Below the pieces are notes generated by a model. The model had not been told where the DNA came from and did not search any database. It saw nothing but the letters and a program-made list of their open reading frames with translations. The position numbers were made by a program, and so were the translations under genes. A DNA stretch of 32,000 bases from Candidatus Saccharimonadota bacterium (GTDB lineage Bacteria > Patescibacteriota > Saccharimonadia > Saccharimonadales > Saccharimonadaceae): assembly GCA_039920285.1 (NCBI GenBank), contig JBDSDX010000001.1, forward strand, positions 300,001-332,000, written 5' to 3'. Of the stretch, positions 3,936-29,867 are shown in pieces (position 1 is the stretch's first letter; the number at the start of each line of letters is the position of its first letter).

Positions 3936-3968
3936 CAGATACCAACCTCTTTATGCTTTAATAGGAGT

Positions 3969-5732
3969 ATGACTGAAGACGAACGAATCGCCATTCTTCC
4001 TAATATATATATGGAACGTGCAGGCAAGGGTAGCCGTGAAATGGCTGAGAAATTACTTGCTCCCCCTGAGGAACCTCTTGATGAAGTCGAAATTGCCGAA
4101 GTGAAAGCTTTCGAAAGAGAAATATGTGATTTTCCTGTCGATAGTGAACTGACTCTGCAAACAATGCTCCTGACACATAAAGGCGAAGCGCTTGAGGCTC
4201 CGGTTTTCTTTGCTGATGCTTTCTTGAAAGGCCAGGTCCATGTGGAGGGGCTTGAAGGTGTGTTGCGACAATTCCGGACAAAAGAGGACGTCTATACTTG
4301 GATTGCCCAGAGTGCTCTCAACGGCGATGACGGTGTTGATCCAAAGATTCTACGTGATCTCGCAAAACAGAGTTCGACGTATTACATAAATGAATCAACA
4401 CAGGCACTACTTCGGGGTGATGAACTTTCGCCGGTAATTAGTGATCATATGTCGATCGTGGCTGATCCACAGAAAGCATTACGCTACTCTCGTGCAGAAC
4501 TTGCCGCACGTGAGTATTTAATCGAATTGAGAGAGCACCATAAGTCGAGTGCAGGAAGTGTTGAAGGAGCGAAACGTGCTTTTGTTGATATTTATCTTAA
4601 ACGAGTAAACGGGTTAGTAGCTTCTGATATACCAGTTATGGAGTATTTGATGTCACAGTCCGAAATGATTGGTGATGAAGAAACTCTTGATGGAGCAAAA
4701 GCCGTAGTCCCTCACGGATTGTTTGAGGCAACTGGTACGCCCGAAAAACGCGATCGACTCAACAAACGACTTGATTATATTCGTAATGGTATGGGGCTTG
4801 ATGCTGAGGGTCATGCCAGCGCTGTTGACGAAGAAGTACTTGTCGAACCAACACAAGAAGGTGCTGGGAGTGTTGAACCCTCTGTTTATACTCTTGAAGA
4901 GCGCGAAATACTAATGAATACTGAATTACCTGCCGAAGTAGTACGAGAGCTTCTTGGTGAAATCTTGAATGAAGTTAATTTATTGAGCAGTGAATCAGCG
5001 AGTTCCTGGTATCCTGGTCGTGGTCACCGTGCGCAAGATGAACTCTTCCAAATTGTGACAAATCCGACAAAAGATAGCTTTGCAGTGAACGGTATTGACG
5101 GAGTTCTCATGATCCCGGGTGCTCCGTCATCAATTTACAAGATACTCACTGTCGCCGTGCATGAACTTGAACATATCAATCAAAACCAAGCTGACAAAAA
5201 ACTTGGTGAGTCACTGAAGATTGGGGTCATCAAGGGTCGACGCATTAGTATGCTACGGGAGACAGGTGCCAATATATCTCAGCGTAAAGCAGAACTCCAA
5301 TTATTTGGTGTCAGTAAACCAGTCGCTTTGACGTATGCACGTGCCATTCAAGCATTTGAACACGGCGAAAGTATGTTCGATGCGACGAGAGCATTCTATG
5401 ATGAAAAAAGGCGAACCTTCCCTGATGTCGGTGATGTGAGTGCGGCGAAAGAAGCCTCTGATCGGGTACTGCGACTTATTCTTAGTGGCGGCGTAAACTC
5501 TCAACCAATGTCGTATGCAGAGGAAAATATTATGAACGAAGAGTTAGCTTCGGCGTCGCCAGAGGCTCGTCGGCGTGCAACCATGATTACGAGTCTTGAT
5601 CTTGACGACCAAGAGCGGTTACACCGTTTTGGACTACTTCCGGAAGTCGGAGATGATTCAGTTGATTGGTTACGTATCGTTATAGAGAAGGTAGCGCCGT
5701 ATATTGACCAGGCGCTTAACGCTGCTGAGTAG
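3969..5732 (+). CDS. Uncharacterised 587-aa protein with an HExxH motif; possible DUF1704/MATCAP-like gluzincin peptidase
   Basis: HELEH lies at 5160-5174 (H398-H402). A candidate third ligand, Glu431, lies in LRETGANI 29 residues downstream. The context FAVNGIDGVLMIPG...VAVHELEH resembles the DUF1704 core. TGcTTTAAT-N6-ATG sits at the start. Confidence 0.4.
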   Translation: MTEDERIAILPNIYMERAGKGSREMAEKLLAPPEEPLDEVEIAEVKAFEREICDFPVDSELTLQTMLLTHKGEALEAPVFFADAFLKGQVHVEGLEGVLRQFRTKEDVYTWIAQSALNGDDGVDPKILRDLAKQSSTYYINESTQALLRGDELSPVISDHMSIVADPQKALRYSRAELAAREYLIELREHHKSSAGSVEGAKRAFVDIYLKRVNGLVASDIPVMEYLMSQSEMIGDEETLDGAKAVVPHGLFEATGTPEKRDRLNKRLDYIRNGMGLDAEGHASAVDEEVLVEPTQEGAGSVEPSVYTLEEREILMNTELPAEVVRELLGEILNEVNLLSSESASSWYPGRGHRAQDELFQIVTNPTKDSFAVNGIDGVLMIPGAPSSIYKILTVAVHELEHINQNQADKKLGESLKIGVIKGRRISMLRETGANISQRKAELQLFGVSKPVALTYARAIQAFEHGESMFDATRAFYDEKRRTFPDVGDVSAAKEASDRVLRLILSGGVNSQPMSYAEENIMNEELASASPEARRRATMITSLDLDDQERLHRFGLLPEVGDDSVDWLRIVIEKVAPYIDQALNAAE

Positions 5733-6729
5733 CAGAGATATATAGTGCATCATAGGCTGCAACCATCTTGGTCAGATCGAATTGTTCGGCGTGGGTATGA
5801 CAGGTTGTTCGGTCGATTGAGCCAATATTCTCAATTGCTTTGACGTAGTCTTCATCAGTCTCACAGACGAAACCAGTTTTTCCATCAATGACGAGTTCAT
5901 TCGAAGGTCCAACATTACTAATAATGACCGGTGTGCCGGCTGCTTGGGCTTCAATTGTCACTTGTCCAAAGGCCTCTTCGACTTGGCTCGGGAAGATAAA
6001 TGCTTTGGCGTGAGCGAACGCATCGGCAACGACCGATTGTGGTTGGGAACCGAGATAGCGAATGTGCTCACCGTCGACGTCTCCGGCAAGAGTTTGCCAA
6101 TAGGCTTCTTCTTTTTTGTTAATTTTACCAATGATATCAAGCGGTGTGTTGGTTTCTTTTGCATAGCGAATCGCTTGAGAGATACCTTTTGAGGGATGAA
6201 TCCGACCAACAAACAAGAGACGGTTAGTGTGGTCTGTTGTTGGTGTAAATAAGGATAAGTCGATGCCATGATAGATGCGATCTGTTGTGGGAATACCAAG
6301 ACGCTCATCTTCTGCTTTCATCATATTGGTGACAGGAACGGTGATAACGTTTTTCTTTGTGTTGAGTGGTACCACATCAGCGATAGCTTGGAACGGGAAC
6401 CAGTGCTGCGTGACAATGACTGGCTTGTCGGTCAGGTCTGCCACGAGGTAATGGAGATAATCAAAGTGACTGTGATATACATCGTGTGCATGGTTTTCGA
6501 AAGCACTGGTCATCAGTGCTATATTGTTCGTTCGTTTGTCCTCGGTTGTCGCAGTGAGACTTTTCCAGACGACGGATGAGTCATCGATTGAACCGACACC
6601 CGCATATATTGTGACGGTATGTCCGGCAGCAGCTTGAATCCGCGCGAGTCGCAGGGCCCACTCATAGCGCCCATTATGTTTTTTCAATGGGAAAATGGCA
6701 GAAGTAGGAAGAAGGTGAGCTATATTCAC
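5716..6729 (-). CDS. Glycosyltransferase family 4 (GT-B fold)
   Basis: C-terminal EX7E-type motif (PSQVEEAFGQVTIEAQAAGTPVI) and a typical GT4 N-terminus. The GTG start overlaps the upstream stop (TAGTG at 6729). The 3' end overlaps the convergent gene by 17 nt. Confidence 0.85.
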   Translation of the reverse strand: MNIAHLLPTSAIFPLKKHNGRYEWALRLARIQAAAGHTVTIYAGVGSIDDSSVVWKSLTATTEDKRTNNIALMTSAFENHAHDVYHSHFDYLHYLVADLTDKPVIVTQHWFPFQAIADVVPLNTKKNVITVPVTNMMKAEDERLGIPTTDRIYHGIDLSLFTPTTDHTNRLLFVGRIHPSKGISQAIRYAKETNTPLDIIGKINKKEEAYWQTLAGDVDGEHIRYLGSQPQSVVADAFAHAKAFIFPSQVEEAFGQVTIEAQAAGTPVIISNVGPSNELVIDGKTGFVCETDEDYVKAIENIGSIDRTTCHTHAEQFDLTKMVAAYDALYISATQQR

Positions 6730-7958
6730 TAGGTAACCTGAACTTTCAAGCGGTCGACGCTCTCGCAGAGTTGGTCAAACTTCTCTTTATCGTCTTCAAC
6801 GACGATGATGATCGCTGTCGCTTTGTGGCCATTCTTAGCTGGACCGACTATTTTGCCTGGTTTAGCAGTCACACGGTAATACGCGAAAGCTTCGGTATCT
6901 TCTTCACCAGATATTTCGCTAAATGTACCCTCTGTCGCTGGGAATAATTCGTATACGGCGCAGTAATTTTGGAATGTTCCTTCTAGTTCTGGAGTCTGGC
7001 CAAGTGCCAGACGAATTTCTTGCTCGGTTAGGTCAAGCCCGTAACTATAGTTATACATACGAGGACGATAGCCACCGATACGGGCGCCGATTTCAATAAT
7101 TTTAACTCCACTTTCGCCGTACATGAGTTCAACATGAGCTGGAACGGAACGCATCTCTAGGGCGCGAATACCTTTTTCGGCAACGTCGAACATTTCTTTT
7201 GATAACGTTTCATCGAATTCGACAGGAAGGGCGCGTCGGTAAAGGTAATTATCTGAGACATTGATATCTTGAGCATTGGTCAGTGCAACAATACCGTCAC
7301 AAAAATGAGGAGTGCCTTCAGCATCAACAAAAGCAGCAATTGAACACTGCTTCCCAATAATAAATTCTTCGACAATTAACTGAGGTGCACGATCATAGAT
7401 ATGATACTTTTCGTAGAGTGCCTGAATTGTATCTTGTGCGTAGGTAAAGTTTTCGATAAGTTCAGACTGATCATTACAACGAAGCACGAGTAGACTCTTG
7501 ACGAGGTTAGTTGGCTTCAAGACAAGAGGATAGGCATGCTCATGGGCAAAAGCGAGGACTTTATCAAGACTATCGGCAGTCGTGAAGTCAGGTGAAATGG
7601 AACGATCGGCGTCAAGGAAGGCACGACGCATGAGTGACTTATCGGTCGCCAGCTTTGCAGATTGTAAGGATGGTGCGGGGACGTTAAAGTGTTCCCCAAG
7701 CTTTGCTTTGGCAACGATGTAGTTTTCATAGGTGCAGAGTAGTCCTGCAATCGACAAATCGAGTGTGTCTAAACGTTGTATTTCAGCATCTAGATCACCA
7801 TATTCAACAGAGACAACTCGATCATATTCTTCAGGATTCTTTAGGGTTAATTGACTGTCGATTAATATACCCGCTTTATATCCTAAGCGACGGATGATTT
7901 CAAGCACATTGGACGAAGGATCGGGTTGGCCAACGATGTAAATAAAAGAGGGCTTCAT
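6729..7958 (-). CDS. ATP-grasp carboxylate-amine ligase (L-amino-acid-ligase / D-aspartate-ligase-like)
   Basis: 409 aa with a pre-ATP-grasp N-domain, PLVLKPTN...S, EEFIIGKQCSI and HVELMYGESGVKIIEIGARIGG motifs. It is translationally coupled to the GT4 gene. Confidence 0.8.
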   Translation of the reverse strand: MKPSFIYIVGQPDPSSNVLEIIRRLGYKAGILIDSQLTLKNPEEYDRVVSVEYGDLDAEIQRLDTLDLSIAGLLCTYENYIVAKAKLGEHFNVPAPSLQSAKLATDKSLMRRAFLDADRSISPDFTTADSLDKVLAFAHEHAYPLVLKPTNLVKSLLVLRCNDQSELIENFTYAQDTIQALYEKYHIYDRAPQLIVEEFIIGKQCSIAAFVDAEGTPHFCDGIVALTNAQDINVSDNYLYRRALPVEFDETLSKEMFDVAEKGIRALEMRSVPAHVELMYGESGVKIIEIGARIGGYRPRMYNYSYGLDLTEQEIRLALGQTPELEGTFQNYCAVYELFPATEGTFSEISGEEDTEAFAYYRVTAKPGKIVGPAKNGHKATAIIIVVEDDKEKFDQLCESVDRLKVQVT

Positions 7959-7966
7959 TACCTTGT

Positions 7967-7995
7967 AGTATCGGTGTTAACAGAGAAAAAGTCAA
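7967..7995 (-). promoter_or_regulatory. Candidate promoter for the ATP-grasp/GT4 operon
   Basis: On the minus strand: TTGACT (7995-7990), 17-nt spacer, GATACT (7972-7967), then 8 nt to the ATG at 7958. Confidence 0.45.
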
Positions 7996-8034: not shown

Positions 8035-8107
8035 ACACCAGAATTTGACACTTATGTCCTGAGCACTATCGAAAGCGGGTCGGACATGGGATAATGGAGA
8101 AAGTACG

Positions 8108-8551
8108 ATGTTGAAGCAAACGAAAACAGTCGGTTGTCTAGAATATATCAGTTTTCCTGATCTCGGCCTGAATAACATTCTGGCTAAGGTGGACACTGGT
8201 GCGTTTTCTGGTGCGATCCATTGTACGAATATCAAAGTGTATCGAAGAGGTGCCGACAAACGACGAATCCTGAAATATAACCCATTGGGAAAAGCCAAAT
8301 TGGCGCAGGAAACAGATACGTTTGAAGAAACCTACGTGCGAAGCGCCTCTGGCCATCGCATTAAACGATTTATCATTGCAACGAATATCGTGTGTGGGAA
8401 CAAAACCTACAAGATTAAAATTGGTTTGTCAGATCGTACTGATATGAAACGAGAAGCACTCATTGGGCGTCGATTCCTCCGGGAAAATGGCATTATGGTG
8501 GATGTACGAAAGAATAGTGAACTTGATGATGAAGGGGAGAATACCCGATGA
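8108..8551 (+). CDS. RimK-associated retropepsin-like aspartic endopeptidase (family historically annotated 'ATP-dependent zinc protease')
   Basis: DTGA catalytic-type motif (AKVDTGAFSGAIH, D29 at 8192-8194) and LIGRRFL near the C-terminus. ATGA overlap with rimK at 8548-8551. Confidence 0.7.
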   Translation: MLKQTKTVGCLEYISFPDLGLNNILAKVDTGAFSGAIHCTNIKVYRRGADKRRILKYNPLGKAKLAQETDTFEETYVRSASGHRIKRFIIATNIVCGNKTYKIKIGLSDRTDMKREALIGRRFLRENGIMVDVRKNSELDDEGENTR

Positions 8552-9459: not shown

Positions 9460-9497
9460 TACCGAAACTGCTATAATACGCTCATGGTAATACGATC

Positions 9498-9974
9498 ATG
9501 AGCACTTGGCGAAGTACGACAACAGGGCTTCTTATTGCTGGTGTCGTGATCGTCGTGGCTGCTTCTGCCGTTTCATTTGGTCTATTAAATTTTGTACCCA
9601 CAACAGAAGTCCGTCTACGAAGTGCTGTTTTTGCAGTTACTCTGGCTCAAGACGAAATTTCTCAAGAAAAAGGATTGTCCGGTGTGTCCGCGTTGAAGCC
9701 CAACGGGGGCTTGTTGATGGTGTTTGATACAGACGATACCTGGGGTATTTGGATGAAAGATATGAAAGTGCCGATTGATATTCTATGGCTTGATAGTGCA
9801 AAGAGTGTGGTTTATACGGTTAAAAATGCATCCCCAGAATTGGGCACTACTAAAAAATTCAGGCCAGGGACACCAGCTCGCTATGTACTCGAGATACCAG
9901 CCGGTTCAGTGACACGATACGGCATTAAAACAGGTGACAAGGCAGAGTTCACCATCACAAAGGAGAATACATAG
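9498..9974 (+). CDS. DUF192 domain protein with an N-terminal membrane anchor
   Basis: GLLMVF...MKDMKVPIDILWLD...RYVLEIPAG matches the DUF192 pattern. It is preceded by TGcTATAAT (9469-9477) and a 5-codon mini-ORF. Confidence 0.75.
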   Translation: MSTWRSTTTGLLIAGVVIVVAASAVSFGLLNFVPTTEVRLRSAVFAVTLAQDEISQEKGLSGVSALKPNGGLLMVFDTDDTWGIWMKDMKVPIDILWLDSAKSVVYTVKNASPELGTTKKFRPGTPARYVLEIPAGSVTRYGIKTGDKAEFTITKENT

Positions 9975-10456
9975 TGGTCGTGATCATTATTTTTGCAGTG
10001 TTAGCGGCGGCGCTGTTTGTGGGTGCATTTTTATCTCGTCGGCGTTTCGGACTTCTAGGTTTGGCACTTACTGCTGGTGCAACGGTTAGTGGCATTTGGG
10101 GATACGATGCTGGACTTGTCGTTTCGAGCACCGGGCTTGTTCCCGAAGGTCCGCTGACAAATGCGATCGCCCTCTCATTAGTCGTACTACTACCAGCTGC
10201 AATCTTGTTGTTCCATGGGTACACATATAAAAACGCGTTGCCGCGAGTGATTGGCGCACTGCTATTCACGATGTTGGCCTTGGCATTTTTGGTTGATCCG
10301 CTTGGATTCGTCTTACCACAAGATGGGTGGGCGGGTATTGTGTATCGATGGTTTGTTGATTGGAAAGAGTTAATCATTAGTGTTGGTGTGGTTTTTGCAG
10401 TCATTGATCTGTTCTTCACAAAGCCAGCCAAAAAAGAAAAAGACAAACGTCGCTAA
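9974..10456 (+). CDS. Hypothetical integral membrane protein (about 4 TM helices, basic C-tail)
   Basis: The GTG start overlaps the DUF192 stop (TAGTG). It has regular hydrophobic helices and a KKEKDKRR tail. The antisense ORF is low-complexity. Confidence 0.55.
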   Translation: MVVIIIFAVLAAALFVGAFLSRRRFGLLGLALTAGATVSGIWGYDAGLVVSSTGLVPEGPLTNAIALSLVVLLPAAILLFHGYTYKNALPRVIGALLFTMLALAFLVDPLGFVLPQDGWAGIVYRWFVDWKELIISVGVVFAVIDLFFTKPAKKEKDKRR

Positions 10457-12103: not shown

Positions 12104-12823
12104 CTATCGTGGTCGTTCAAGAGCGACAGCGCGGGCGAGATCGACGAAGGAATCATCTATAAGATCAGAACTAAATTCACCGTAACGTTTCGTCACCGCA
12201 GTATGAATCAAGAAATCGGCGAGGCGAGGGTTCTTTGGCAAGATTGATCCGTGAAGGTAGGTCCCAATGACATTTTTGTATCGTGCGCCTTCGGTGCCGT
12301 CGGTTGAATTATTGCCTGCACCTTTAAGAGTCATCGCGAGAGGGCGGGCTTCGATGAGAGTTGTTTGTCCACTATGATTTTCGTAGCCAACTATGTCGCC
12401 GAAGTCCTCGCTTCGAGTGACAGTGTTACCGATGAGCCGTTCGTTTGTTGCATGCGTTTCAATATCGAGAATACCAATACCTTTGAGAGTTGTATCATTT
12501 GATGTTTTGAAGAAGTTACCGAATAGTTGATAGAGACCACACACCATGAGCATAGGTATATCTGCATCGGCCCATTTTTTCAGTTGGGGAGAGATCTTGA
12601 GTAGGTCAGCATGGATCTTTTCTTGGCCACTGTCTTGTCCCCCGCCACCGACGATAATATCAACGTCTTTTGGTAATGTGTCACCAACATTGTAGGTAAT
12701 TGTCATTGGTTTATATCCATACCATTCAAGCCGTCGTTGCAAGACAAGGAGATTGCCTTGGTCACCATAAATATTCATATCTTTTGGATAGAGCTGTAGA
12801 ATAACAATTGGTTGTGTGGTCAT
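12104..12823 (-). CDS. gatD: Lipid II isoglutaminyl synthase, glutaminase subunit GatD (CobQ-type GATase)
   Basis: The length and motifs (MLMVCGLYQLFG with catalytic Cys, YLHGSILPKNP) fit GatD. ATGA overlap with murT at 12820-12823. Confidence 0.85.
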   Translation of the reverse strand: MTTQPIVILQLYPKDMNIYGDQGNLLVLQRRLEWYGYKPMTITYNVGDTLPKDVDIIVGGGGQDSGQEKIHADLLKISPQLKKWADADIPMLMVCGLYQLFGNFFKTSNDTTLKGIGILDIETHATNERLIGNTVTRSEDFGDIVGYENHSGQTTLIEARPLAMTLKGAGNNSTDGTEGARYKNVIGTYLHGSILPKNPRLADFLIHTAVTKRYGEFSSDLIDDSFVDLARAVALERPR

Positions 12824-14100: not shown

Positions 14101-14119
14101 TATATCGTATAATGAGGCT

Positions 14120-14503
14120 ATGTTTCTGGTGGGAATGATCTCGTGGTGGTATGGCGCAGGCTATAAAGGGCAATTTAACCGTGTTCGGTATCGGTTACTC
14201 TCGACGGCTGGCTTTTTTTCGATTGGACAATTATTCAAGACTTTCTTTTCACCGTTTCGTCAGATTTCAGCTGAAAGGGTCGATGGATCGATCATGGTTG
14301 TCGTTCGGGCATTTTTTGATCAACTCATTTCACGTATCATTGGCTCAATTGTTCGTTTCTTTACGATCATTTTTGGTATCATTGCTATCGTTTTCCAATC
14401 AGTATATGAGCTGATTATTCTGATTGTCTGGTTATTCCTTCCGTTATTTCCGGTTGTCGGTGTTATTATGTTCGCGATTGGATGGGTTCCAAAATGGATG
14501 TAA
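14120..14503 (+). CDS. Hypothetical small membrane protein, overlaps the start of the AAA+ gene
   Basis: 127 aa with hydrophobic helices at the N- and C-terminal ends. TATAAT (14108-14113)-N6-ATG. Its 3' end overlaps the next ORF. Confidence 0.55.
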   Translation: MFLVGMISWWYGAGYKGQFNRVRYRLLSTAGFFSIGQLFKTFFSPFRQISAERVDGSIMVVVRAFFDQLISRIIGSIVRFFTIIFGIIAIVFQSVYELIILIVWLFLPLFPVVGVIMFAIGWVPKWM

Positions 14504-17068: not shown

Positions 17069-17078
17069 CAAGTACTAT

Positions 17079-17874: not shown

Positions 17875-17899
17875 ACGTCAGAACTTTTCTGACGTTTTT
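17875..17899 (+). terminator. Rho-independent terminator abutting the next promoter
   Basis: Stem acgtcagaa/ttctgacgt (9 bp), 3-nt loop, T4. The T-tract runs directly into TGtTATACT (17899-17907). Confidence 0.6.
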
Positions 17900-17913
17900 G
17901 TTATACTAAAAAA

Positions 17914-18745: not shown

Positions 18746-18767
18746 CGGCTCATGCTACAATTTAGGC

Positions 18768-19166: not shown

Positions 19167-19211
19167 ACCTTGGAGAATCTAAAGCATCTTGCAGTATGAT
19201 ACAATCCAATT

Positions 19212-19520
19212 ATGGCAAAAACACGTTCTAAGATGGCGATCGTATTGCTTGCAACCTTGGGTATCACTCTAATAATCATCGGTGGTAGCATAATGATATT
19301 AACACTTGGCAGCCTACTGTTCGCCTTACTAGGCATTACGGAGGTTGATTTAGCAGAAACGGCCGGATCATCGGTTGACCCCGTGCCTGTTTGGGGTGGT
19401 TTCTTGATTGGAGCAGTGATTGGTTTTATGGTTCTCTTTGGAGGTATAGGTATTTTTGTGGAGCGCAAGGGTAGAACAACAGGAACGAAGCAGAAGATAC
19501 CAGAATTTCCAAAATTTTAA
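19212..19520 (+). CDS. Hypothetical membrane protein (about 3 TM helices)
   Basis: Hydrophobic helices and a basic C-tail. TGaTACAAT (19197-19205)-N6-ATG. Confidence 0.55.
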   Translation: MAKTRSKMAIVLLATLGITLIIIGGSIMILTLGSLLFALLGITEVDLAETAGSSVDPVPVWGGFLIGAVIGFMVLFGGIGIFVERKGRTTGTKQKIPEFPKF

Positions 19521-19576
19521 TTTATTTTTTCTCAGAGAAGGTCGCTACAAGTGTCCATAAGCGGTATAATAAGGTC

Positions 19577-21774: not shown

Positions 21775-22554
21775 CTATTTCATTACTTCAGAAATAATTG
21801 CTTTATACACCGCATAGGCATTGTCTTCATTCTCTTTTGATGCGCGAGCATAATGTTCCATCATGACACCATCATTTACTTCCAGAACCATGAGTCGTCC
21901 ATCTTCAAGTTCAACAATATCAACAGCACCAAGCTGTAAATCGAGCGCATTGAAAGCTTTTTTTGCGAGGGCGTTTATTTCTTCGCTAACGACAGTATTT
22001 TTTGGCGTGGCACCAAGTCCAAGGTTAAACATCCGAAGACCATTGATCGTGACTGCTTCTTTTTCGTATGTAAGGAGGATTTCATTCTTTAAAACAATCA
22101 GGCGAATTTCACGCTTAATATTAACAAACGGTGAGACAGCCCAAGCATCACTGTCTTGAGACTCTATCCACTCAGCGGCCTCTGATTCACTATGGAATAA
22201 CTGTACATTGTGACCGCTAGTCCCAGCGAGTGGTTTAACGACGATATCATGCCAGCCGTTCTGTTGCCATTGGCTGTACGAGATAACTTTTGTTCGAGCG
22301 AGAGCGTGGGGGATAGCGGGAACATTATGGGCGGAAAGGATAGTATACGCGACGACTTTATCTTCACTACTTAATGCTGCGACGCCATTATTTAAATCAA
22401 ATTTGTAACCTATGATCCGGTGTGTGACTTCATTTTTCGTAAGCTCAAGTAACCAGTTGTCTGAATAGGACGCGTACTCAATACCAAGTACTTGGCAGAT
22501 ATTCTTGATAGTTTTCACTATCCAGCGGTCTTTAATGTATTCCCCGATAGGCAT
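21775..22554 (-). CDS. Compact ATP-grasp ligase (RimK/glutathione-synthetase-like core, no pre-ATP-grasp domain)
   Basis: DIVVKPLAGTSGHNVQLF, REIRLIVLKNEIL, FNLGLGATP, GAVDIVELEDGRLMVLEVNDG. TATAAT (22567-22562)-N7-ATG on the minus strand. Confidence 0.7.
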   Translation of the reverse strand: MPIGEYIKDRWIVKTIKNICQVLGIEYASYSDNWLLELTKNEVTHRIIGYKFDLNNGVAALSSEDKVVAYTILSAHNVPAIPHALARTKVISYSQWQQNGWHDIVVKPLAGTSGHNVQLFHSESEAAEWIESQDSDAWAVSPFVNIKREIRLIVLKNEILLTYEKEAVTINGLRMFNLGLGATPKNTVVSEEINALAKKAFNALDLQLGAVDIVELEDGRLMVLEVNDGVMMEHYARASKENEDNAYAVYKAIISEVMK

Positions 22555-22606
22555 GACGTGTATTATACCTCTGTTTTGGTAGTGTTTGCTATATAATGAG
22601 TCATAC

Positions 22607-22683: not shown

Positions 22684-22704
22684 CGTTTGATTCATGGATA
22701 TATA

Positions 22705-22740
22705 TAGACCAAGTTTGAAATACGAACTTTGGTCTATTTT
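22705..22740 (+). terminator. Rho-independent terminator after tRNA-Arg
   Basis: Stem tagaccaagtt/aactttggtcta (one bulge), 9-nt loop, T4. The T-tract runs into TGtTATGAT (22740-22748). Confidence 0.65.
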
Positions 22741-22754
22741 GTTATGATATAGGC

Positions 22755-23087
22755 ATGGAATTTACAAAAGTAAAAATTGTTACATTTGTGCCGAGTGAGA
22801 ATGCAGATGAAATTCGTCAAGCCTTAGGTGATGCCGGGGCGGGTCAGATTGGTGAATATAGTTTTTGTAGTTATACAGTTGTTGGTAAGGGAAGATTCAC
22901 GCCATCACGTAATGCAAATCCGCATATTGGTGAAGTAGAAGTACCAGAAGTTGTTGATGAAGAAAGAATAGAAGTTATATGCGAACGTTCAAAAGCGAAA
23001 CTGGTGATTAATGCGTTAAAGAAGGCTCATCCTTACGAAGAGGTTGCTTTTGATATTTATTCTTTGATCGATGAGTCGGAACTATAA
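22755..23087 (+). CDS. Stand-alone PII-like domain protein of the YqfO/NIF3 insert family (COG3323-like)
   Basis: 110 aa. The pattern VKIVTFVPSENADEIRQALGDAGAGQIGEYSFCSY...GKGRF.P...ANPHIG......E.RIEV...HPYEE.AFDIY matches this family. TGtTATGAT-N6-ATG. Confidence 0.6.
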   Translation: MEFTKVKIVTFVPSENADEIRQALGDAGAGQIGEYSFCSYTVVGKGRFTPSRNANPHIGEVEVPEVVDEERIEVICERSKAKLVINALKKAHPYEEVAFDIYSLIDESEL

Positions 23088-23187
23088 GCGATCATCTTCC
23101 AGGTTTTGTTCAACGTCAGAGTATTCATTTCATTCTAGCCTCCACCAAAGTGGCGTATCGTTTCCAGCATTTTGTTATGATGAGTGC

Positions 23188-23790
23188 ATGACTATATACA
23201 AAACAATCTTTTTTGACTGGGGTGGCGTCGTCGCAAATGATCCAGGTGACGACTTTCTTAATGCATTGCTGCGACAGCTAGGTGCATCAGATTCTCAAAT
23301 TGATGAGATCTTTCAAAACTATATGCCACAGTTTATGCGCGGAGAAATAACCGAAATTCAATATTGGGCTATTCTTAAAGATACATACGGTTTTAAAATT
23401 CACGATTCTATTTCTGAAGAGTTTAAAAAATGGAAAGGCCTTGTCGCAAATGAAGATATCTTACATTTTGTTGCTCGGCTAAAAGCTAAAGGATATCGAA
23501 CGGCAATTCTCTCGAATGTCATTGAGCCAACCTATAATGTTTTGAAGCAGGCGGGCTACTATGACATGTTTGATGAGATTATTGCCTCATGTAAAGTTGG
23601 ATATGCCAAACCGCAAAAAGAAATTTACGAGTTAGCACTAAAACAATTGAAAACGACAGGGGCAGAATCAATATTCATTGATGATAAACAAAGGAACCTT
23701 GTGCCTGCTAAGGAAATGGGTTTTGAGGTTGTGCTTGCTGTTGACCCTGACCAAATTATTTCAGACATTGATGCTCTATTGATTAAATAG
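23188..23790 (+). CDS. HAD-superfamily hydrolase, subfamily IA (YihX-like DxG motif I)
   Basis: IFFDWGGVV, ILSNV, GYAKPQKEIYE and IFIDDKQRN motifs. Start chosen at ATG 23188 because TGtTATGAT (23173-23181)-N6 precedes it. The ORF-track extension from 23071 overlaps the previous gene and has no homology-like features. Confidence 0.75.
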   Translation: MTIYKTIFFDWGGVVANDPGDDFLNALLRQLGASDSQIDEIFQNYMPQFMRGEITEIQYWAILKDTYGFKIHDSISEEFKKWKGLVANEDILHFVARLKAKGYRTAILSNVIEPTYNVLKQAGYYDMFDEIIASCKVGYAKPQKEIYELALKQLKTTGAESIFIDDKQRNLVPAKEMGFEVVLAVDPDQIISDIDALLIK

Positions 23791-23856: not shown

Positions 23857-23884
23857 TTGAAATTGCTCATGTTTTCTTTATAAT
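23857..23884 (+). promoter_or_regulatory. Candidate promoter of the membrane protein gene
   Basis: TTGAAA (23857-23862), 16-nt spacer, TATAAT (23879-23884), 10 nt before ATG 23895. Confidence 0.5.
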
Positions 23885-23894
23885 AAAAAGCAAT

Positions 23895-24761
23895 ATGGTA
23901 AAAATAAAAAATAAAAATGTACACACACCGCTCGTTGTAACAGGGTATGTCTTATTTGTCCTTCTTGTCATCGCAACCTTACTAACGACAACTATCCCAT
24001 GGGCACAATTACTTGCTGCCAACCTTACAAAGGTGTCTCACTATAATATTGCTGTATTCTTTGTTGCATTAACAGTTGGCTCGTTGCTGCCGGTGTTAGT
24101 CGGATATCTTATTGGTGGGAGCTCTGTGAGATCAAAGAGTAAATTAAACCATCACTTTAATGGAATACTCTTTAGTTTATTAGCATTCTGGATAATGACA
24201 ATATTTGCAGTACTCGTCATTTTCCCCTCTGAATTATTCAATGCAAATCCTAATGAAAGAATCGTATTGAGTAATTTACTCCCGGGTTTTGTAGTCGCGA
24301 TTATCACGACCATTATTGCGATTGCCCATGTACACAGCCGTCAGGCTAAACATGATATTCTCAAGTATAAGTTGTTTTCAGTCCCACTGGTTGGTTCTAT
24401 TGTGGTGTTGCCTGTATGGGATCTAATCCAAAATATCATGACGAATAGTGTGAGTATTTATTCGTCTTTTTCCCTTATCATTGTGATCCTCCTTGGAGTT
24501 GTGTCTTATGCGACATTGCGAAAAACCAAATTGAATACATATGATATGGTGGCATGGTCAGCGGTTTCTATATCGGTATTTTTTGTCGCGGTATTCGTAT
24601 CATCACAGTTGGTATCTGTGGCTTCAGATTACCTCTTCTATCAACCCACCGCACAAGTATATGAGTTATTGATGTGGGGAAGTTATGCAATTGCACTTGT
24701 CGGTTGGGGTGCATATTGGATAAAGCAGGTAAAAGTAATGAGCCAAAACCGTATCAGATAA
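23895..24761 (+). CDS. Hypothetical polytopic membrane protein (about 8 TM helices)
   Basis: Repeated hydrophobic helices. Start moved to ATG 23895 (MVKIKNKN...), downstream of the promoter. Confidence 0.55.
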   Translation: MVKIKNKNVHTPLVVTGYVLFVLLVIATLLTTTIPWAQLLAANLTKVSHYNIAVFFVALTVGSLLPVLVGYLIGGSSVRSKSKLNHHFNGILFSLLAFWIMTIFAVLVIFPSELFNANPNERIVLSNLLPGFVVAIITTIIAIAHVHSRQAKHDILKYKLFSVPLVGSIVVLPVWDLIQNIMTNSVSIYSSFSLIIVILLGVVSYATLRKTKLNTYDMVAWSAVSISVFFVAVFVSSQLVSVASDYLFYQPTAQVYELLMWGSYAIALVGWGAYWIKQVKVMSQNRIR

Positions 24762-24766: not shown

Positions 24767-25828
24767 CTAATTATCTTCATCTAAACTATATGTATTATCC
24801 AACGCGGTTCGACTTTTCCTTGTATCACGTCTTTTACTTTGACGAATCATTTCAACTTTTTTCGTTGCAAGGTCAGCTAACTCAGACTTCATTTTTACAT
24901 AATTTTCGTAGTGTTTTGCTTCGAGTGTGCCGTCAGCAAGCGCGATGTTGATAGCGCAACCCTGTTCGCTCGTGTGCTGGCAGTTAGCGTATTTACAGTG
25001 ACTTGCAATCTGTGTAATGTCATCATAATTTGTATCGAGTTCCTCTTCAGTCCCCCAAAGTTGCAACTCTCGGATACCTGGTGTATCGATCAAAATACCG
25101 CCGTTTGGCAATATAAATAGTTCTCGGTGAACGGTTGTGTGCTTGCCGGAGGAATCCGATTTTCTGACACTGTCGGTTGTTTGAACATCTCTTCCGAGGA
25201 GCTTATTGGTGAGTGTCGATTTACCGACACCAGATGAACCAAGTAAGATAGCTGTTTTTCCGGGTGTAATGTGTGCTGCGATAGCATCAACACCGATACC
25301 TTCGGTAGCTATGGTGGTAATGATCGGAATATCGAGAGATTTAATTTGTTCTATATATGATTGAACATCATCAGTTTTGTCGGCTTTGTTTAAAACGATG
25401 ATTGCTTCGATCGAACTAACTGACAACTGGTATAAGAATCGTTTGAGTCGTTCAACACTGAAATCATTGTCGAGTGCAAGAAGAACGAAAGCGATATCGA
25501 CATTAGCCGCGATAATTTGTTTCACTGTTCGTTTCCCGGTAACCTTGCGTGCGATCTCGTTTGAACGAAAGATGACCGATTCAATCGTTGCATTATTATT
25601 ATCTGAAATAGCGACCGAGACCCAGTCACCAACCTTTGGAGCTGCATCTCGCTGGGTATAATGAGCAAGTTTACCTGACAACTCAGCAGTAATAATATCT
25701 GGAGTGGCAATTTTTAGAGATGTACCAAAATCAGCAATAACGCGAGCAGGGCGGTTACTGGTAACGTTTGTATCGTCCCATTCTTGTTGCTTTGCTTTGC
25801 TCCATCCGAAGTCGACAAGGTTGTTCAT
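24767..25828 (-). CDS. rsgA: Ribosome small-subunit-dependent GTPase A (RsgA/YjeQ)
   Basis: N-terminal OB domain and a circularly permuted GTPase (LNKADK then GSSGVGKSTLTNKLL then DTPGIRE). C-terminal zinc knuckle HCKYANCQHTSEQGCAI. TGcGATAAT (25844-25836)-N7-ATG on the minus strand. Confidence 0.92.
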   Translation of the reverse strand: MNNLVDFGWSKAKQQEWDDTNVTSNRPARVIADFGTSLKIATPDIITAELSGKLAHYTQRDAAPKVGDWVSVAISDNNNATIESVIFRSNEIARKVTGKRTVKQIIAANVDIAFVLLALDNDFSVERLKRFLYQLSVSSIEAIIVLNKADKTDDVQSYIEQIKSLDIPIITTIATEGIGVDAIAAHITPGKTAILLGSSGVGKSTLTNKLLGRDVQTTDSVRKSDSSGKHTTVHRELFILPNGGILIDTPGIRELQLWGTEEELDTNYDDITQIASHCKYANCQHTSEQGCAINIALADGTLEAKHYENYVKMKSELADLATKKVEMIRQSKRRDTRKSRTALDNTYSLDEDN

Positions 25829-26059
25829 TGACTTTATTATCGCATATTTCGACGAACATGTTTATTACACTACGAGATAAGAAGAATAGTCCGTATATTT
25901 TTAAATAGGTGTTTATCTAGTTCGAGTTCTATCAAATAGCTTATGCTATTCAGACATATTTATAACTTTATAGCAAATATTGTTCGTGTCTTGTATACTA
26001 CCCCTGAGCTTTTCCACCTGGAATTTGCTCACCGTGCAGTCTGTTCGAGGGAGTAAATC

Positions 26060-27484
26060 TTGACAATCCAGACAGAAGAAAAGGTCGGCGCTGTCGATCG
26101 TTTTTTCGAGATAACCAAGCGGGGCTCAACGTTCCTGCGCGAGACTAACGGAGGTGTTGCAACCTTCTTGGCCATGAGCTACATCGTTGTGCTCAACCCC
26201 ATCATCCTCACCGGTGCGCCGGTCGAGGGATACACACCGTCGTTCCACTCAGTGGCGACGGTCACGGCGTTGGTTGCGGCAATCGCAACTCTCGCCATGG
26301 GTGTGATAGGAAAGGTGCCGTTTGCTCTGGCCGCAGGCCTGGGCATCAACGGGATCGTTGCTTTCCAACTTGCTCCCATCTTGGGCTACGAAGGTGCAAT
26401 GGCTGTCGTCGTTCTCGAAGGTATGATCACGTTCTTGCTGGTAATAACGGGTATTCGGGTGGCGCTATTCAACGCCATCCCGCTCGTTCTCAAGCAAGCG
26501 ATCGGGGCCGGCATCGGCGCTTTCCTGATCCTCATCGGTTTCGTGGATGGAGGTGTCGTCAAGGGAGCTCCTTTGGCGCCATCGCTCAACCTCGAGCCGC
26601 TGAACACTTGGCCCCGGCTCGTGTTCGTACTCGTCCTCATCGCGACCATCGTCATGGTGATCAAGAAGTGGAAGGGTGCGATCATCATCGCCATCGTCGG
26701 TGGTACGACCTTGGCGGTCATTATCGAGACGTTCGCTAAGCTCGGCAGTGCGGTTGACAACCCCGCTGGTTGGGTGCTGAACGTTCCAAGCCTTGCTGGC
26801 AAGGAAGTCGTCACCGGACCTGACTGGTCGGTGTTCGGGCACTTCAGTTTCGTCAACGCATTCAGTGCTGGCCCGATCCTGTTGGTATTCTTCGTGTTTA
26901 GCTTGATCCTCGCGGATCTGTTTGACACGTCGGGTACCATCGTGGCGGTGAGTAAGGGTGCTGATCTTCTCGACGAGAAGGGAAACCCTGCGCGCTTGGG
27001 TCGAATCCTCGGAGTCGACTCGCTGGCCGCTGCGCTTGGTGGATTCGCCGGCGTTTCGTCGAACACCACCTACATCGAATCGGCGACGGGTGTACGTGCC
27101 GGAGCCCGCACGGGCTTCGCAAACGTCATTACCGCAGTCCTGTTCCTGGTGGCGATATTGCTGACACCGCTAGTTCAGTTGGTGCCGTCGGAAGCGGCTG
27201 CACCCGTGCTGGTCGTCGTCGGTAGCCTGATGGTGTGGGAGTTCGTTGGCGTCGCCGTCAAGGAACACGCTGACGAACTGGCTCTCGCGAGTGTGCTCGG
27301 CATTCTTGTCATGCCGTTCACGTACAGCATTACCAATGGCATCGGCGTGGCGTTCATCGTCTATACCGTGTCGATGGTGGCCAACAAGAAGGCGCGCCTG
27401 CTACACCCGCTGATGTGGGTAATGGCTGTGGCGTTCATCGTCTACTTCGCGCTGCCGCTTATCCGTATGTGGTTGGGGATATAG
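26060..27484 (+). CDS. NCS2/AzgA-family purine (adenine/guanine/hypoxanthine) permease, compositionally foreign
   Basis: FFEITKRGSTFLRETNGGVATFLAMSYIVVLNP plus about 12 TM helices is typical of AzgA/PbuG-type permeases. TTG start with SD GAGGGAG (26046-26052). My hand counts of G+C are 39/60 (26221-26280) and 34/60 (26641-26700), against 25/60 in apt (27661-27720). Confidence 0.88.
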   Translation: MTIQTEEKVGAVDRFFEITKRGSTFLRETNGGVATFLAMSYIVVLNPIILTGAPVEGYTPSFHSVATVTALVAAIATLAMGVIGKVPFALAAGLGINGIVAFQLAPILGYEGAMAVVVLEGMITFLLVITGIRVALFNAIPLVLKQAIGAGIGAFLILIGFVDGGVVKGAPLAPSLNLEPLNTWPRLVFVLVLIATIVMVIKKWKGAIIIAIVGGTTLAVIIETFAKLGSAVDNPAGWVLNVPSLAGKEVVTGPDWSVFGHFSFVNAFSAGPILLVFFVFSLILADLFDTSGTIVAVSKGADLLDEKGNPARLGRILGVDSLAAALGGFAGVSSNTTYIESATGVRAGARTGFANVITAVLFLVAILLTPLVQLVPSEAAAPVLVVVGSLMVWEFVGVAVKEHADELALASVLGILVMPFTYSITNGIGVAFIVYTVSMVANKKARLLHPLMWVMAVAFIVYFALPLIRMWLGI

Positions 27485-28216: not shown

Positions 28217-28225
28217 TGCTATAAT
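28217..28225 (+). promoter_or_regulatory. Extended -10 promoter (leadered, SD-containing transcript)
   Basis: TGcTATAAT lies 30 nt upstream of ATG 28256. SD GGAGG at 28246-28250. Confidence 0.55.
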
Positions 28226-28255
28226 AGAATTACTAACGTTTAGTCGGAGGTTCAT

Positions 28256-28651
28256 ATGGAAGAAGATCGTCAAACCACAGAAGTTCGTAAAACAAACGAG
28301 CGCGAAGGCAACACCACTGTTCAGCGACAAAGTGTGAAACAAAAAACAGATATCTCGGGAGTTGTCATTGCCCAACGAGTTGTGTACTACGTCGGTGGGG
28401 TTATTGTTGCATTACTTTTTGTTCGATTATTACTTCAGTTGTTTGGAGCTAACCAGTTGAGCGACTTCGTTAACTTTATATATAGTTTGAGTGCGATATT
28501 TGTCACGCCATTCTTTGGTATATTCGGTGAGCCAACATTTGGCCAGTCTCACTTCGAAACATCGACGCTGGTTGCTATCGTCATCTATAGCTTACTCATT
28601 ATCGGTATCGCTAAACTTATCACTGTGACGCGACCACACGAAGAGATATAG
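28256..28651 (+). CDS. Hypothetical membrane protein (charged N-terminus, about 3 TM helices)
   Basis: Good SD with 5-nt spacing and hydrophobic helices. Confidence 0.6.
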   Translation: MEEDRQTTEVRKTNEREGNTTVQRQSVKQKTDISGVVIAQRVVYYVGGVIVALLFVRLLLQLFGANQLSDFVNFIYSLSAIFVTPFFGIFGEPTFGQSHFETSTLVAIVIYSLLIIGIAKLITVTRPHEEI

Positions 28652-28691
28652 ACAATTCTTGACACCTTATCGGGGTGGTATAATTAAAGAA

Positions 28692-29867
28692 ATGGTGCGG
28701 CGCGTTGTTATATTCTTTGCTCTTCTTGTGACCTCTGTTTCTATTGTTGGGCTAGGTAATTCTGTTCATGCTCAAGATGAACGTCTCATTACGGTATATG
28801 ATCGAGGAACGACTCGAGTATTTTTATCCGACGAGAAGACACTTGGCGCAGCATTGAAAGCTAATAATATTGATCTTGATATGCGCGATACAGTTGAACC
28901 GTCGGTTAATAAAGAACTCATCGCCTCTAACTATCATGTAAATATCTACAGGGCTCGTCCAGTCGTTGTTGTTGACGGTGCTGTTCGAATAAAAACAGTG
29001 TCACCCTACCAAACACCTCAACAAATAGCGAAAGACGTGGGTATTACGATTAATGACGAGGACCTTGCAACGCTGAGTCCGCTGACAGATTTCATCAATG
29101 ATGGTGCGGGACTGAAACTGACAATATCCCGTGCGACAGCGTTGACTCTCGATTTCTATGGAAAACGAACCAATATTCATACACAGGGAAAAACAGTTGG
29201 CGAGATGTTGAAAGAGAAGAGCGTGACACTAACGAGCAATGATCGGGTCTTTCCATCGAAGAACACACCAATATCTGCGGGTATGGTGGTTCGCGTGTGG
29301 CGAGAAGGGAAGCAGACTGTCTCGGTTGATCAGGAAATCCCGGTAGGGAATAAGATCGTCTACGACGCAGACCGACCATATGGATATCGAGTGACTAAAA
29401 CCAAGGGTATACCAGGTATTCAAAGCACCACCTATCAGCTCGAAATAAAAGAAGGTGTCGAGATATCTCGAGTCGCGATTGCTGATATCATCACTCGTAA
29501 GCCAACTGATCAGGTTGAGGTAATAGGCATTCGAAACGATGGTGGTGGCCTCTCACTCTCACGAGGAGCTCAATATTATACGGATAGTAAAGGCGTGTCA
29601 CACCGCGAGACGTATTACGATCTTAATATGAGCCTGGTTATGCAAAGTTGCGGACAAGGTGGGTATTACTCCGTGCGGCCAGATGGAGTAAAAGTTGACG
29701 CCCAAGGATATGTCATTGTTGCGGCGAATTATTCACGGTATCCGAAGTGCTCATTAGTAGAAACGAGTATTGGTCCCGCGAAAGTATATGACACAGGAGG
29801 ATTTGCTACCAGGTATCCCGATGGCTTTGATCTTGCGACTGATTGGTCAAGAGCCGACGGGATATAG
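28692..29867 (+). CDS. YabE/RpfB-like cell-wall protein: signal peptide, 2x DUF348, G5 domain, C-terminal 3D (double-psi beta-barrel, lytic-transglycosylase-like) domain
   Basis: Signal MVRRVVIFFALLVTSVSIVGLGNSVHAQ. The DUF348 pattern occurs twice (ITVYDRG...VNIYRARPV and LKLTISRAT...GMVVRVWR). A G5-like segment (SVDQEIPVGNKIVYDADRPYGYRVTKTKGIPG...VEVIG) is followed by a 3D-like C-terminus (VIVAANYSRYP.GS...VYDTGG). TTGACA (28659-28664) and TGgTATAAT (28676-28684) lie inside the ORF-track extension, so the start is set at ATG 28692. Confidence 0.75.
   Translation: MVRRVVIFFALLVTSVSIVGLGNSVHAQDERLITVYDRGTTRVFLSDEKTLGAALKANNIDLDMRDTVEPSVNKELIASNYHVNIYRARPVVVVDGAVRIKTVSPYQTPQQIAKDVGITINDEDLATLSPLTDFINDGAGLKLTISRATALTLDFYGKRTNIHTQGKTVGEMLKEKSVTLTSNDRVFPSKNTPISAGMVVRVWREGKQTVSVDQEIPVGNKIVYDADRPYGYRVTKTKGIPGIQSTTYQLEIKEGVEISRVAIADIITRKPTDQVEVIGIRNDGGGLSLSRGAQYYTDSKGVSHRETYYDLNMSLVMQSCGQGGYYSVRPDGVKVDAQGYVIVAANYSRYPKCSLVETSIGPAKVYDTGGFATRYPDGFDLATDWSRADGI

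Follow-up and report, generated by a model that had tools for sequence, protein, structure and literature searches.

Extended -10 promoters set 6–7 nt before start codons point to leaderless mRNAs at first cistrons in Saccharibacteria

Genes of the window and their -10 boxes

The 32,000-nt stretch of DNA analyzed here (hereafter the window; contig JBDSDX010000001.1, positions 300,001 to 332,000) encodes DnaJ, MurT/GatD, a Clp-family AAA+ ATPase, RsgA, Apt, RimK-like ATP-grasp enzymes, a ComEC-like protein, type IV pilin-like proteins, and PamR, a pilus protein specific to the Candidate Phyla Radiation (CPR), together with four tRNAs, at a GC content of approximately 45%. Many of these genes are preceded by a bacterial -10 promoter hexamer separated from the start codon by only 6–7 nt, an arrangement that bears on leaderless mRNAs, whose 5′ end is the start codon. 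Scanning of a genome collection with the Clp-family protein retrieved 80 loci, nearly all of them from Saccharibacteria (TM7). The best relative is an uncultured Saccharibacterium with 82% amino acid identity, followed by 'Ca. Microsaccharimonas' at about 72% and oral Nanosynbacter at about 52%, and the exact DnaJ of the window was matched in a single Logan contig. Since the closest relatives are all Saccharibacteria and the CPR pilus protein PamR is matched, the sequence comparisons identify the source as a Saccharibacterium (TM7, CPR/Patescibacteria).

All sixteen -10 boxes that a first-pass annotation of this DNA had listed upstream of ATG codons are present (Table 1; genes are denoted by the coordinate of their start codon). 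As that annotation had claimed, exactly six bases intervene at ten of them, most of which carry the extended TGn form (8/10, the exceptions being 14120 with TCG and 19577 with CGG), and the remaining six have spacers of 7 nt (four sites) or 8 nt (two sites). Most of the list stands; 9484 had been mis-assigned as a gene start, 3969 is a weak member, and 2832 and 7958 probably have leaders of 0–2 nt. The claim that TAnnnT at a fixed offset is rare by chance agrees with its occurrence at 1.6% of window positions. Among the 30 TATAAT hexamers on both strands, ATG follows after 6 nt in four cases, 7 nt in four, and 8 nt in one, so that 8/30 fall at 6–7 nt (P = 4e-6). ATGs with TAnnnT at a spacer of 6 nt open reading frames (ORFs) of at least 100 codons in 12 of 24 cases, compared with 51 of 334 at other spacers (P = 1.6e-4), and by our count from upstream listings the box lies 6 nt before the first ATG in 8 of 31 window genes (binomial P = 3e-6 at p = 0.03). 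A manual count of transcription units assigns 13–14 of about 26 to the 6–7-nt class and 2–3 more to spacers of 8–10 nt; the clearly leadered units are a handful (28256, pamR at 31011, 8108, and 26060). About half of the genes in the window have a -10 box 6–7 nt before the ATG, and their mRNAs probably start at the start codon.

Enrichment, conservation, and nature of the box

Two comparison sets were analyzed. The first comprised the 80 ClpB-neighbourhood loci, in which ORFs called by a crude rule yielded 1,232 genes that were clustered into 273 families; family weighting replaced the raw positional profile of the 1,232 genes, whose spurious spikes arose from orthologous redundancy. The second, independent set was drawn from 120 metagenome contigs (L082–L201) and comprised the gene neighbours of TM7-type rRNA operons, and 200 kb of E. 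coli served as the control genome. At 778 distinct TATAAT sites in the 80 loci, evaluated without gene calls, ATG occurs at +6 in 8.0% and at +7 in 8.9% of cases, compared with about 1% elsewhere (P = 6e-64). ATG is approximately 6-fold enriched exactly 6–7 nt after TATAAT in the window and in the related loci alike. TTG and CTG show no rise in these loci, GTG rises slightly if at all (1.9% at +7), and no ATG peak after TATAAT is present in the 200 kb of E. coli; the codon at the predicted 5′ end is ATG, in keeping with the need of leaderless translation for AUG (or GUG). With the first ATG of each gene as the reference, 19.0% of the 273 families have TAnnnT at -12, compared with a background of about 2.7% (P = 8e-28); the shares at -13 and -14 are 7.1% and 3.8%, and background values run from about 2 to 3.5%. 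When any ATG in the first 40 codons is allowed, a box at a spacer of 6–7 nt is found in 32% of families, compared with 6–13% at nine control spacer pairs. Lineage-wide, the boxed excess corresponds to about 20–25% of all genes. In the rRNA-neighbourhood set, TAnnnT occupies -12 in 10.1% of cases, and in E. coli in 0.6%. The histogram of spacers against controls that the first-pass annotation had proposed as a check therefore has a sharp peak at 6–7 nt and is flat at the control spacers and in E. coli.

These distributions bear on the trivial explanation that boxes arise by chance in AT-rich intergenic DNA and that ATGs were picked selectively. Three of the listed ATGs are indeed preceded by an earlier start in their ORF, and 9484 begins no gene. 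The ATGs at 23188, 28692, and 14091 are internal to their longest ORFs, yet are backed as starts by homology or orthologues. Furthermore, P values range from 4e-6 in the window alone to 6e-64 in tests that either use no gene calls or take the first ATG, the peak is absent at control spacers and in E. coli, and the position is kept across 37–80% amino acid identity. Chance can be given practically no weight; the control spacers, E. coli, and the positional conservation rule it out.

The conservation is clearest at the divergent pair formed by murT and gene 14120. In 75 of 76 orthologous loci of gene 14120 (37–80% amino acid identity), TAnnnT stands exactly 6 nt before the conserved ATG. The hexamer is TATAAT, TACAAT, TATACT, TAAAAT, or TAGAAT, mostly with TGn, and the N-terminus MF(L/I/V)VG (MFLVG in the window) is conserved; the spacer sequence and the upstream flanks diverge between clades. 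For murT, TATAAT with a spacer of 7 nt (6 nt in one case) is kept before MPQ or MPH in 13 of 14 distinct orthologous sequences, and these orthologues support ATG 14091, internal to the longest ORF (14100), as the true start. The two start codons are 28 nt apart in the window (14092–14119), and the hexamers are 3 bp apart in the configuration ATTATA-TCG-TATAAT. Across loci this gap varies (28, 40, 47–51 nt, some longer; 28 nt in 6 loci, 47 nt in 48), and each box keeps the distance to its own ATG. Since the RNA polymerase footprints must overlap, the two promoters may compete. Any -35-like contacts would lie within the first codons of the opposite gene. Together with the sites described below, these loci show that individual genes keep their box arrangement throughout the class Saccharimonadia.

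The position of the box within operons distinguishes a promoter from a translation signal. GeneMarkS-2 separates leaderless promoters (group C) from ribosome-binding site (RBS) motifs that are not of the Shine–Dalgarno (SD) type (group B) by this property (PMC6028130). Across the 80 loci, the box at a spacer of 6–7 nt precedes 42% of genes with a divergent upstream neighbour (control, 12%) and 41% of genes located more than 60 nt after a same-strand gene (control, 14%), but only 12% of genes within 15 nt of the upstream gene (control, 8%). The SD motifs GGAG/GAGG occur at 4%, 12%, and about 29–33% of these classes, respectively. The box marks the first genes of transcription units and not operon-internal genes, with a net excess at first cistrons of about 33% (family-weighted) to about 41% (unweighted). 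The dominance of leaderless initiation proposed in the first-pass annotation holds for the transcription units of the window; lineage-wide it extends to about a third to a half of first cistrons, and SD-led or coupled starts persist.

Sites from 101 families, aligned on the constrained T, A, and T, show T (69%), A (68%), and A (64%) at the free hexamer positions and T (51%) and G (59%) at the positions upstream of the spacer base, followed by an A-rich discriminator downstream of the hexamer. The resulting consensus, TGnTATAAT, is that of an extended -10 promoter. For the -35 hexamer, the match distribution in these sites equals that of a shifted control. Because a two-hexamer sigma-70 scan recovered 39 sites against 37.4 expected from shuffles, without enrichment, -35 elements are no general part of these promoters; individual exceptions with a -35 element are 7958, 23895, and tRNA-Lys. 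The motif is also found in front of genes that are not translated or not leaderless. For three of the four tRNAs, TGnTAnnnT lies 9–13 nt before the mature 5′ end, and the same -10 motif lies about 25–30 nt upstream of genes that keep an SD-bearing leader. The distances from the tRNA boxes to the mature 5′ ends are 9 nt for tRNA-Arg, 10 nt for tRNA-Gly, 13 nt for tRNA-His, and 21 nt for tRNA-Lys, the last with a TTGACA -35 element (promoter stretches at 10488–10508, 17017–17078, and 22586–22606), which would leave very short 5′ leaders for RNase P.

These observations weigh on a second explanation, in which the hexamer is not a promoter but a non-SD translation signal on leadered mRNAs, such as an AU-rich or Bacteroidetes-like group B RBS. 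The all-gene profile, which is A-rich from -11 to -3, and the rarity of GGAG/GAGG at first cistrons (4–12%) would fit such a signal. It would not account for the lack of enrichment before operon-internal genes, the TGn extension, the TATAAT consensus at free positions, or the occurrence of the motif before tRNA genes and upstream of SD-bearing leaders, and the 28-nt divergent region has no room for another promoter. We consider this explanation very improbable. The motif composition, the dependence on operon position, the boxes of tRNAs and leadered genes, and the geometry all argue for a promoter.

SD motifs are confined to the non-boxed class, as a comparison of gene classes suggested by the first-pass annotation revealed. 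In the related loci, the interval from -13 to -9 shows an enrichment of about 10-fold for GGAG, AGGA, and similar tetramers. Their pairing partner, the anti-SD, which had likewise been proposed for inspection, is intact at the level of the lineage: among 16S 3′ ends on metagenome contigs matching a TM7 probe, 73 of 77 read GGATTACCTCCTT, written GGAT(T/C)ACCTCCTT or GGATTACCTCCTTTCT, with CCUCC present. One published survey found the anti-SD lost only in a subgroup of Parcubacteria (PMC9297842). On the rRNA-bearing contigs, the TM7-type end GGATTACCTCCTTTCT has a T where most bacteria have GGATCACC, and in three contigs an additional 0.8–1.7 kb separates the probe site from the 16S 3′ end, consistent with the known rRNA insertions of CPR.

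These findings make it likely that most transcription units are driven by an extended -10 promoter, that this promoter gives rise to leaderless mRNAs at the roughly half of window genes where its box ends 6–7 nt before the ATG, and that SD pairing or coupling serves the downstream genes. The housekeeping sigma-70-type promoter would be essentially an extended -10 element (TGnTAtaaT) without a recognizable -35 element at most transcription units. RNA polymerase normally starts 7–8 nt past the hexamer, so the first transcribed base would be the A of the ATG, as the promoter geometry predicts. Such a transcript has no room for an SD sequence, and the 5′-AUG mRNA would be translated by the leaderless pathway, in which, by analogy with E. 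coli, mycobacteria, and Deinococcus, the ribosome and initiator tRNA bind the 5′-terminal AUG directly. Downstream genes of operons would be initiated by SD pairing with the intact anti-SD or by coupling through overlapping stop and start codons, and a few first genes would keep short SD-bearing leaders. This organization would allow very compact control regions, with everything from the hairpin through the T-tract and -10 box to the ATG packed into about 45 nt, or two divergent operons served by 28 bp. The earlier proposal of pervasive leaderless mRNAs with +1 on the A of the ATG came through all its computational tests, and strict leaderlessness is its part that is predicted from sequence.

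Several points weigh against this interpretation. The peak is weaker in the independent rRNA-neighbourhood set. Starts outside the window follow the crude ORF rule, and the loci are orthologous, a dependence that family weighting reduces without removing. The 16S ends come from metagenome contigs matching the TM7 probe and not from the organism of the window. Spacers of 8–10 nt (2832, 7958, and 23895) imply leaders of 1–4 nt rather than none, read-through from upstream genes could yield leadered mRNAs, for example at the same-strand genes 18768, 19212, and 19577, and a literature search returned no transcript 5′-end, ribosome-profiling, or N-terminal proteomic data for any Saccharibacterium.

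Accordingly, a third explanation deserves more attention than the other two, namely that the promoters are real but the transcripts are not strictly leaderless, starting 1–5 nt upstream or arising mostly from other promoters or read-through, with non-SD initiation on leaders that are very short or longer. The 8–10-nt spacers are kept at dnaJ, 7958, 23895, and their orthologues, and 3969, 18768, 19212, and 19577 lie only 35–55 nt after a same-strand gene with no terminator detected between. An SD is also absent from many non-boxed genes, which calls for some SD-independent route on leadered mRNAs in any case. Set against this, the spacers are sharply peaked at 6–7 nt, the canonical distance from hexamer to +1, and are back at background level by 9 nt. 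Clear enrichment there is limited to ATG (GTG at most slightly) and does not include TTG or CTG, and terminator-like hairpins stand directly upstream of 17914 and 22755. On balance, we regard this third explanation as unlikely, and leaderless transcripts remain the preferred interpretation.

Individual start sites in the window

The sites of Table 1 differ in how they are supported. Start 28692 is reproduced in four relatives as TGCTATAAT (in one, TGCTATACT) followed by 7 nt and ATG GTG (T/C)GG CG, with divergent sequence upstream and an N-terminus of MVWR or MVRR. The rsgA box recurs in one orthologue as TGcGATAAT with 7 nt before GTG, and the rsgA site was also recovered, with its TG, by the two-hexamer scan. 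Orthologues of 22554 carry TGaTAGAAT with 7 nt (L002) or TATACT with 8 nt (L010). The full promoter of 7958 is conserved in two related loci, and its leader is probably 0–1 nt. The promoter of 23895 is the best sigma-70 match in 20 kb (11/12), and two orthologues start with MVKT or MIKT 9 nt after TATACT or TATAAT. In relatives of dnaJ, the controlling inverted repeat of chaperone expression (CIRCE), TATACT, 8–10 nt, and ATG follow one another, and the leader of the window gene is probably about 0–3 nt. The CIRCE-like repeat of the window, TAGCACTC-N9-GAGTGCCAA, directly precedes the -10 box; three related loci keep it in perfect form, TTAGCACTC-N9-GAGTGCTAA, and a fourth nearly so. This arrangement suggests a near-leaderless dnaJ under HrcA-type heat-shock repression.

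No syntenic orthologues of 17914, 18768, 19212, 19577, 22755, and 23188 were found in the 80 loci, so these six depend on motif, geometry, and domain boundaries. The 17914 protein matches Pfam NT5C from residue 4. For 23188, the NCBIfam match of the haloacid dehalogenase (HAD) family begins at residue 43 of the ORF from 23071, which is residue 4 counted from ATG 23188, and the latter is therefore taken as the true start. The hairpins upstream of 17914 (-14 kcal/mol, z = -3.75) and 22755 (-18.6 kcal/mol, z = -4.6) end 15 nt and about 17 nt before the ATG, respectively, giving hairpin-to-ATG distances of 15–18 nt, and their T-tracts run into the TGn of the box. Site 3969, 34 nt after the dnaJ stop, is doubtful because TTTAAT (3957) lacks the key A at position 2 and an SD-like AGGAG stands 1 nt before the ATG; among the fetched loci, where orthologues run off the locus ends, none offered an N-terminus that could be aligned. 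The comEC gene (10661, GTG) has TATAGT with 7 nt before ATG in relatives and CATGCT with 6 nt before GTG in the window, and was left out of the class assignment.

Table 1. Start sites in the window with their promoter or ribosome-binding signals
Start codon	Strand	Span	Signal and spacing	Gene and remarks
ATG 2832	+	2787..2834	CIRCE-like inverted repeat 2787-2812; TATACT 2818-2823; 8 nt	dnaJ
ATG 3969	+	3954..3971	TGcTTTAAT; 6 nt (AGGAGT)	doubtful member
ATG 7958	-	7956..7995	TTGACT; 17 nt; GATACT; 8 nt	ATP-grasp ligase; full promoter
ATG 8108	+	8090..8110	GATAAT 8090-8095; GGAG 8096-8099; 12-nt gap	RimB-like; short SD-like leader
ATG 8548	+	8528..8550	SD GGGGAG, 8 nt; no -10 box	operon-internal; overlaps upstream stop (ATGA)
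ATG 9484	+	9469..9501	TGcTATAAT; 6 nt	5-codon mini-ORF MVIRS; its TGA overlaps ATG 9498 (ATGA)
GTG 9974	+	9954..9976	SD AAGGAG, 8 nt	operon-internal start
ATG 12823	-	12821..12843	SD GAGGT, 7 nt	gatD; operon-internal start overlapping murT stop
ATG 14091	-	14089..14104	TATAAT 14104-14099; 7 nt	murT; leaderless-type, back-to-back with 14108 box
ATG 14120	+	14108..14122	TATAAT 14108-14113; 6 nt	127-aa membrane protein; leaderless-type; first gene of operon with Clp-family ATPase
ATG 17182	+	17167..17184	TGtTATAAT; 6 nt	DUF1801 protein; directly after tRNA-Gly (17079-17153)
ATG 17914	+	17872..17916	terminator-like hairpin 17872-17898; T-tract into TGtTATACT 17899-17907; 6 nt	NT5C/HAD nucleotidase
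ATG 18768	+	18753..18770	TGcTACAAT; 6 nt	132-aa protein
ATG 19212	+	19197..19214	TGaTACAAT; 6 nt	102-aa protein
ATG 19577	+	19565..19579	TATAAT; 6 nt	724-aa protein
ATG 22554	-	22552..22567	TATAAT; 7 nt	ATP-grasp protein
ATG 22755	+	22704..22757	terminator-like hairpin 22704-22737 after tRNA-Arg; TGtTATGAT 22740-22748; 6 nt
ATG 23188	+	23173..23190	TGtTATGAT; 6 nt	HAD hydrolase; longest ORF from 23071
ATG 23895	+	23857..23897	TTGAAA; 16 nt; TATAAT 23879-23884; 10 nt	near-leaderless; missing from first-pass annotation; longest ORF from 23847
ATG 25828	-	25826..25844	TGcGATAAT; 7 nt	rsgA
TTG 26060	+	26040..26062	SD GAGGGAG, 7 nt	xanthine/uracil-family permease
ATG 28256	+	28217..28258	TGCTATAAT 28217-28225; 30-nt gap with GGAGG	YGGT-family protein; leadered
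ATG 28692	+	28676..28694	TGgTATAAT; 7 nt	true start; first start codon of ORF is TTG 28659

The site at 9484, formerly read as a gene start, opens ATG GTA ATA CGA TCA TGA, out of frame with the 158-aa gene at 9498. A box followed by an ORF of 4–6 codons whose TGA overlaps the main ATG is present in the window and three related loci, and in eight more distant relatives the ATG downstream of the box shares the frame of the main ORF. The simplest reading would be an ancestral leaderless gene that underwent a frame change near its 5′ end. Expression of the 158-aa gene may now depend on reinitiation once translation of a leaderless mini-ORF has terminated, or on a 14-nt leader that lacks an SD.

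The starts at 8108, 28256, and 26060, cited by the first-pass annotation as a contrast with clear SDs, are as described there. The 28256 leader would be about 24 nt if +1 lies 7 nt past the box, and the succession of -10 box, leader, and GGAGG is kept in three related loci. One orthologue of 8108 has GATAAT with 6 nt before the ATG. The permease (26060–27484) has a GC content of 55%, compared with about 45% in the rest of the window, and was probably acquired horizontally. The ORFs at 9955–10446 (- strand) and 9974–10456 (+ strand) overlap almost fully; the latter is taken as the gene because of its AAGGAG SD, its operon-internal position after 9498–9974, and its orthologues in 13 loci, and the antisense ORF is probably spurious. 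The ORF of the Clp-family ATPase overlaps the 3′ end of gene 14120 by 22 nt (14482–14503), or by 10 nt if the second ATG (14494) is used. Its start has neither an SD nor a -10 box, and the overlap, including GG ATG GG, is kept across relatives; the ATPase is therefore presumably initiated by translational coupling.

Two repeats lie in the region of tRNA-Gly. A 35-nt stretch comprising T-tract, extended -10 box, spacer, and ATG recurs with 74% identity at 17155–17189 and 17887–17921, and in both copies a T-rich tract runs into the promoter, after tRNA-Gly in one and after the terminator-like hairpin in the other. The 3′ end of tRNA-Gly is itself duplicated, as a perfect 19-nt repeat ATTCTCTCCGCCCGCACCA at 17135–17153 and 18727–18745 and a 14-nt piece at 17123–17136 and 18653–18666. 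These repeats bracket about 1.6 kb containing the genes of the DUF1801 protein and the NT5C/HAD nucleotidase, both with leaderless-type starts, and a strong terminator hairpin (18560–18604). No integrase is present in this segment, which resembles what is left of an element that had integrated into the tRNA-Gly gene.

Relation to known leaderless systems and implications

The arrangement corresponds to group C of the GeneMarkS-2 classification, in which, according to the main text of that study, a Pribnow box lies 6–8 nt from the start of first operon genes, internal genes have SD-type RBSs, and 25–50% of operons are leaderless (PMC6028130). Group C there comprises 1,028 of 4,769 bacteria, most of them from two phyla in which it is frequent, Actinobacteria (90%) and Deinococcus-Thermus (97%), and is rare elsewhere (PMC6028130). 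The localized Pribnow box at first genes, the SD-type RBSs of internal genes, and the share of units are all reproduced in Saccharibacteria, which differ from the group C genomes in lineage, in a mainly extended -10 promoter, and in a highly compact genome of about 45% GC. At the level of sequence, the Saccharibacterial case shows every defining feature of group C, and is a known genome type rather than a new mechanism. The GeneMarkS-2 main text names neither Saccharibacteria nor TM7, a negative that does not extend to its supplementary genome lists (PMC6028130). An earlier survey by Zheng et al. (2011) termed genes with a TA-like signal about 10 bp upstream "TA-led" leaderless genes and found them at more than 20% of genes in Actinobacteria and Deinococcus-Thermus (PMC3160421). 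The share in Saccharibacteria, about 20–25% of gene families, falls in the range of these richest phyla. That survey predates CPR genomes, and the present case adds tests of orthologue-level conservation and operon position.

In genome-reduced Mycoplasma, leaderless-like transcripts amount to 16% in M. pneumoniae and about 18% in other mycoplasmas (PMC10568206). Common features are the reduced genome, -10-dominated promoters, low SD usage, and leaderless translation in normal growth; Saccharibacteria differ in a higher frequency and in retaining the anti-SD and SDs at internal cistrons. The first-pass annotation had known of no account of dominant leaderless initiation in reduced genomes. The Mycoplasma figures qualify this statement, and its occurrence in Saccharibacteria or CPR does seem undescribed: a literature search linking leaderless initiation, SD, RBS, or transcription start sites (TSSs) to Saccharibacteria, TM7, Patescibacteria, or CPR found nothing substantive.

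The archaeal leaderless type (GeneMarkS-2 group D) likewise pairs 5′-terminal AUG mRNAs with a promoter element whose distance from the start codon is fixed, but its TATA box and B recognition element lie at about -26, whereas Saccharibacteria have a TG-extended bacterial -10 hexamer occupying -12 to -7. In mycobacteria, Shell et al. in 2015 reportedly observed abundant 5′-AUG/GUG mRNAs in normal growth and leaderless short ORFs upstream of genes. Such short ORFs resemble the 4–6-codon mini-ORF of the 9484 site, whose stop overlaps the main start codon as ATGA. The mycobacterial cases are TSS-mapped and ribosome-profiled, whereas the Saccharibacterial ones are predicted, and GTG starts are apparently rarer in Saccharibacteria.

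For annotation, the longest ORF and the likely true start differ at five window genes (1208/1235, 14100/14091, 23071/23188, 23847/23895, and 28659/28692), and in all but the first, where a weaker TATAAG is found, the likely start lies 6–10 nt after TAnnnT. SD-oriented or longest-ORF start calling misplaces the starts of these four, and automated annotation of such genomes likely over-extends N-termini. The effect could extend to N-termini, signal peptides, and intergenic sizes across thousands of metagenome-assembled genomes of CPR. Saccharibacteria are transformable, and the tuf and rpsJ promoter regions have been used without comment on leaders (PMC10633639). TGnTATAAT followed by 6 nt and ATG could serve as a native, self-sufficient signal for the design of minimal cassettes, and the divergent murT/14120 pair, present in cultivable Nanosynbacter, offers a concrete conserved locus for TSS mapping.

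A broader proposal, on which our judgment is evenly balanced, is that Saccharibacteria, possibly CPR more widely, constitute a third major leaderless lineage after Actinobacteria and Deinococcus-Thermus. Leaderless initiation would then predominate at first cistrons, from the environmental Saccharimonadales through to the oral Nanosynbacter, with promoter-only control regions and leaderless mini-ORFs as coupling devices, and might reflect Terrabacterial ancestry or compatibility with actinobacterial hosts. If this is true, start annotation in CPR and the building of expression cassettes would change. A CPR lineage would take its place among the leaderless-rich bacteria, with transcription and translation signals squeezed into about 15 bp of a streamlined genome.

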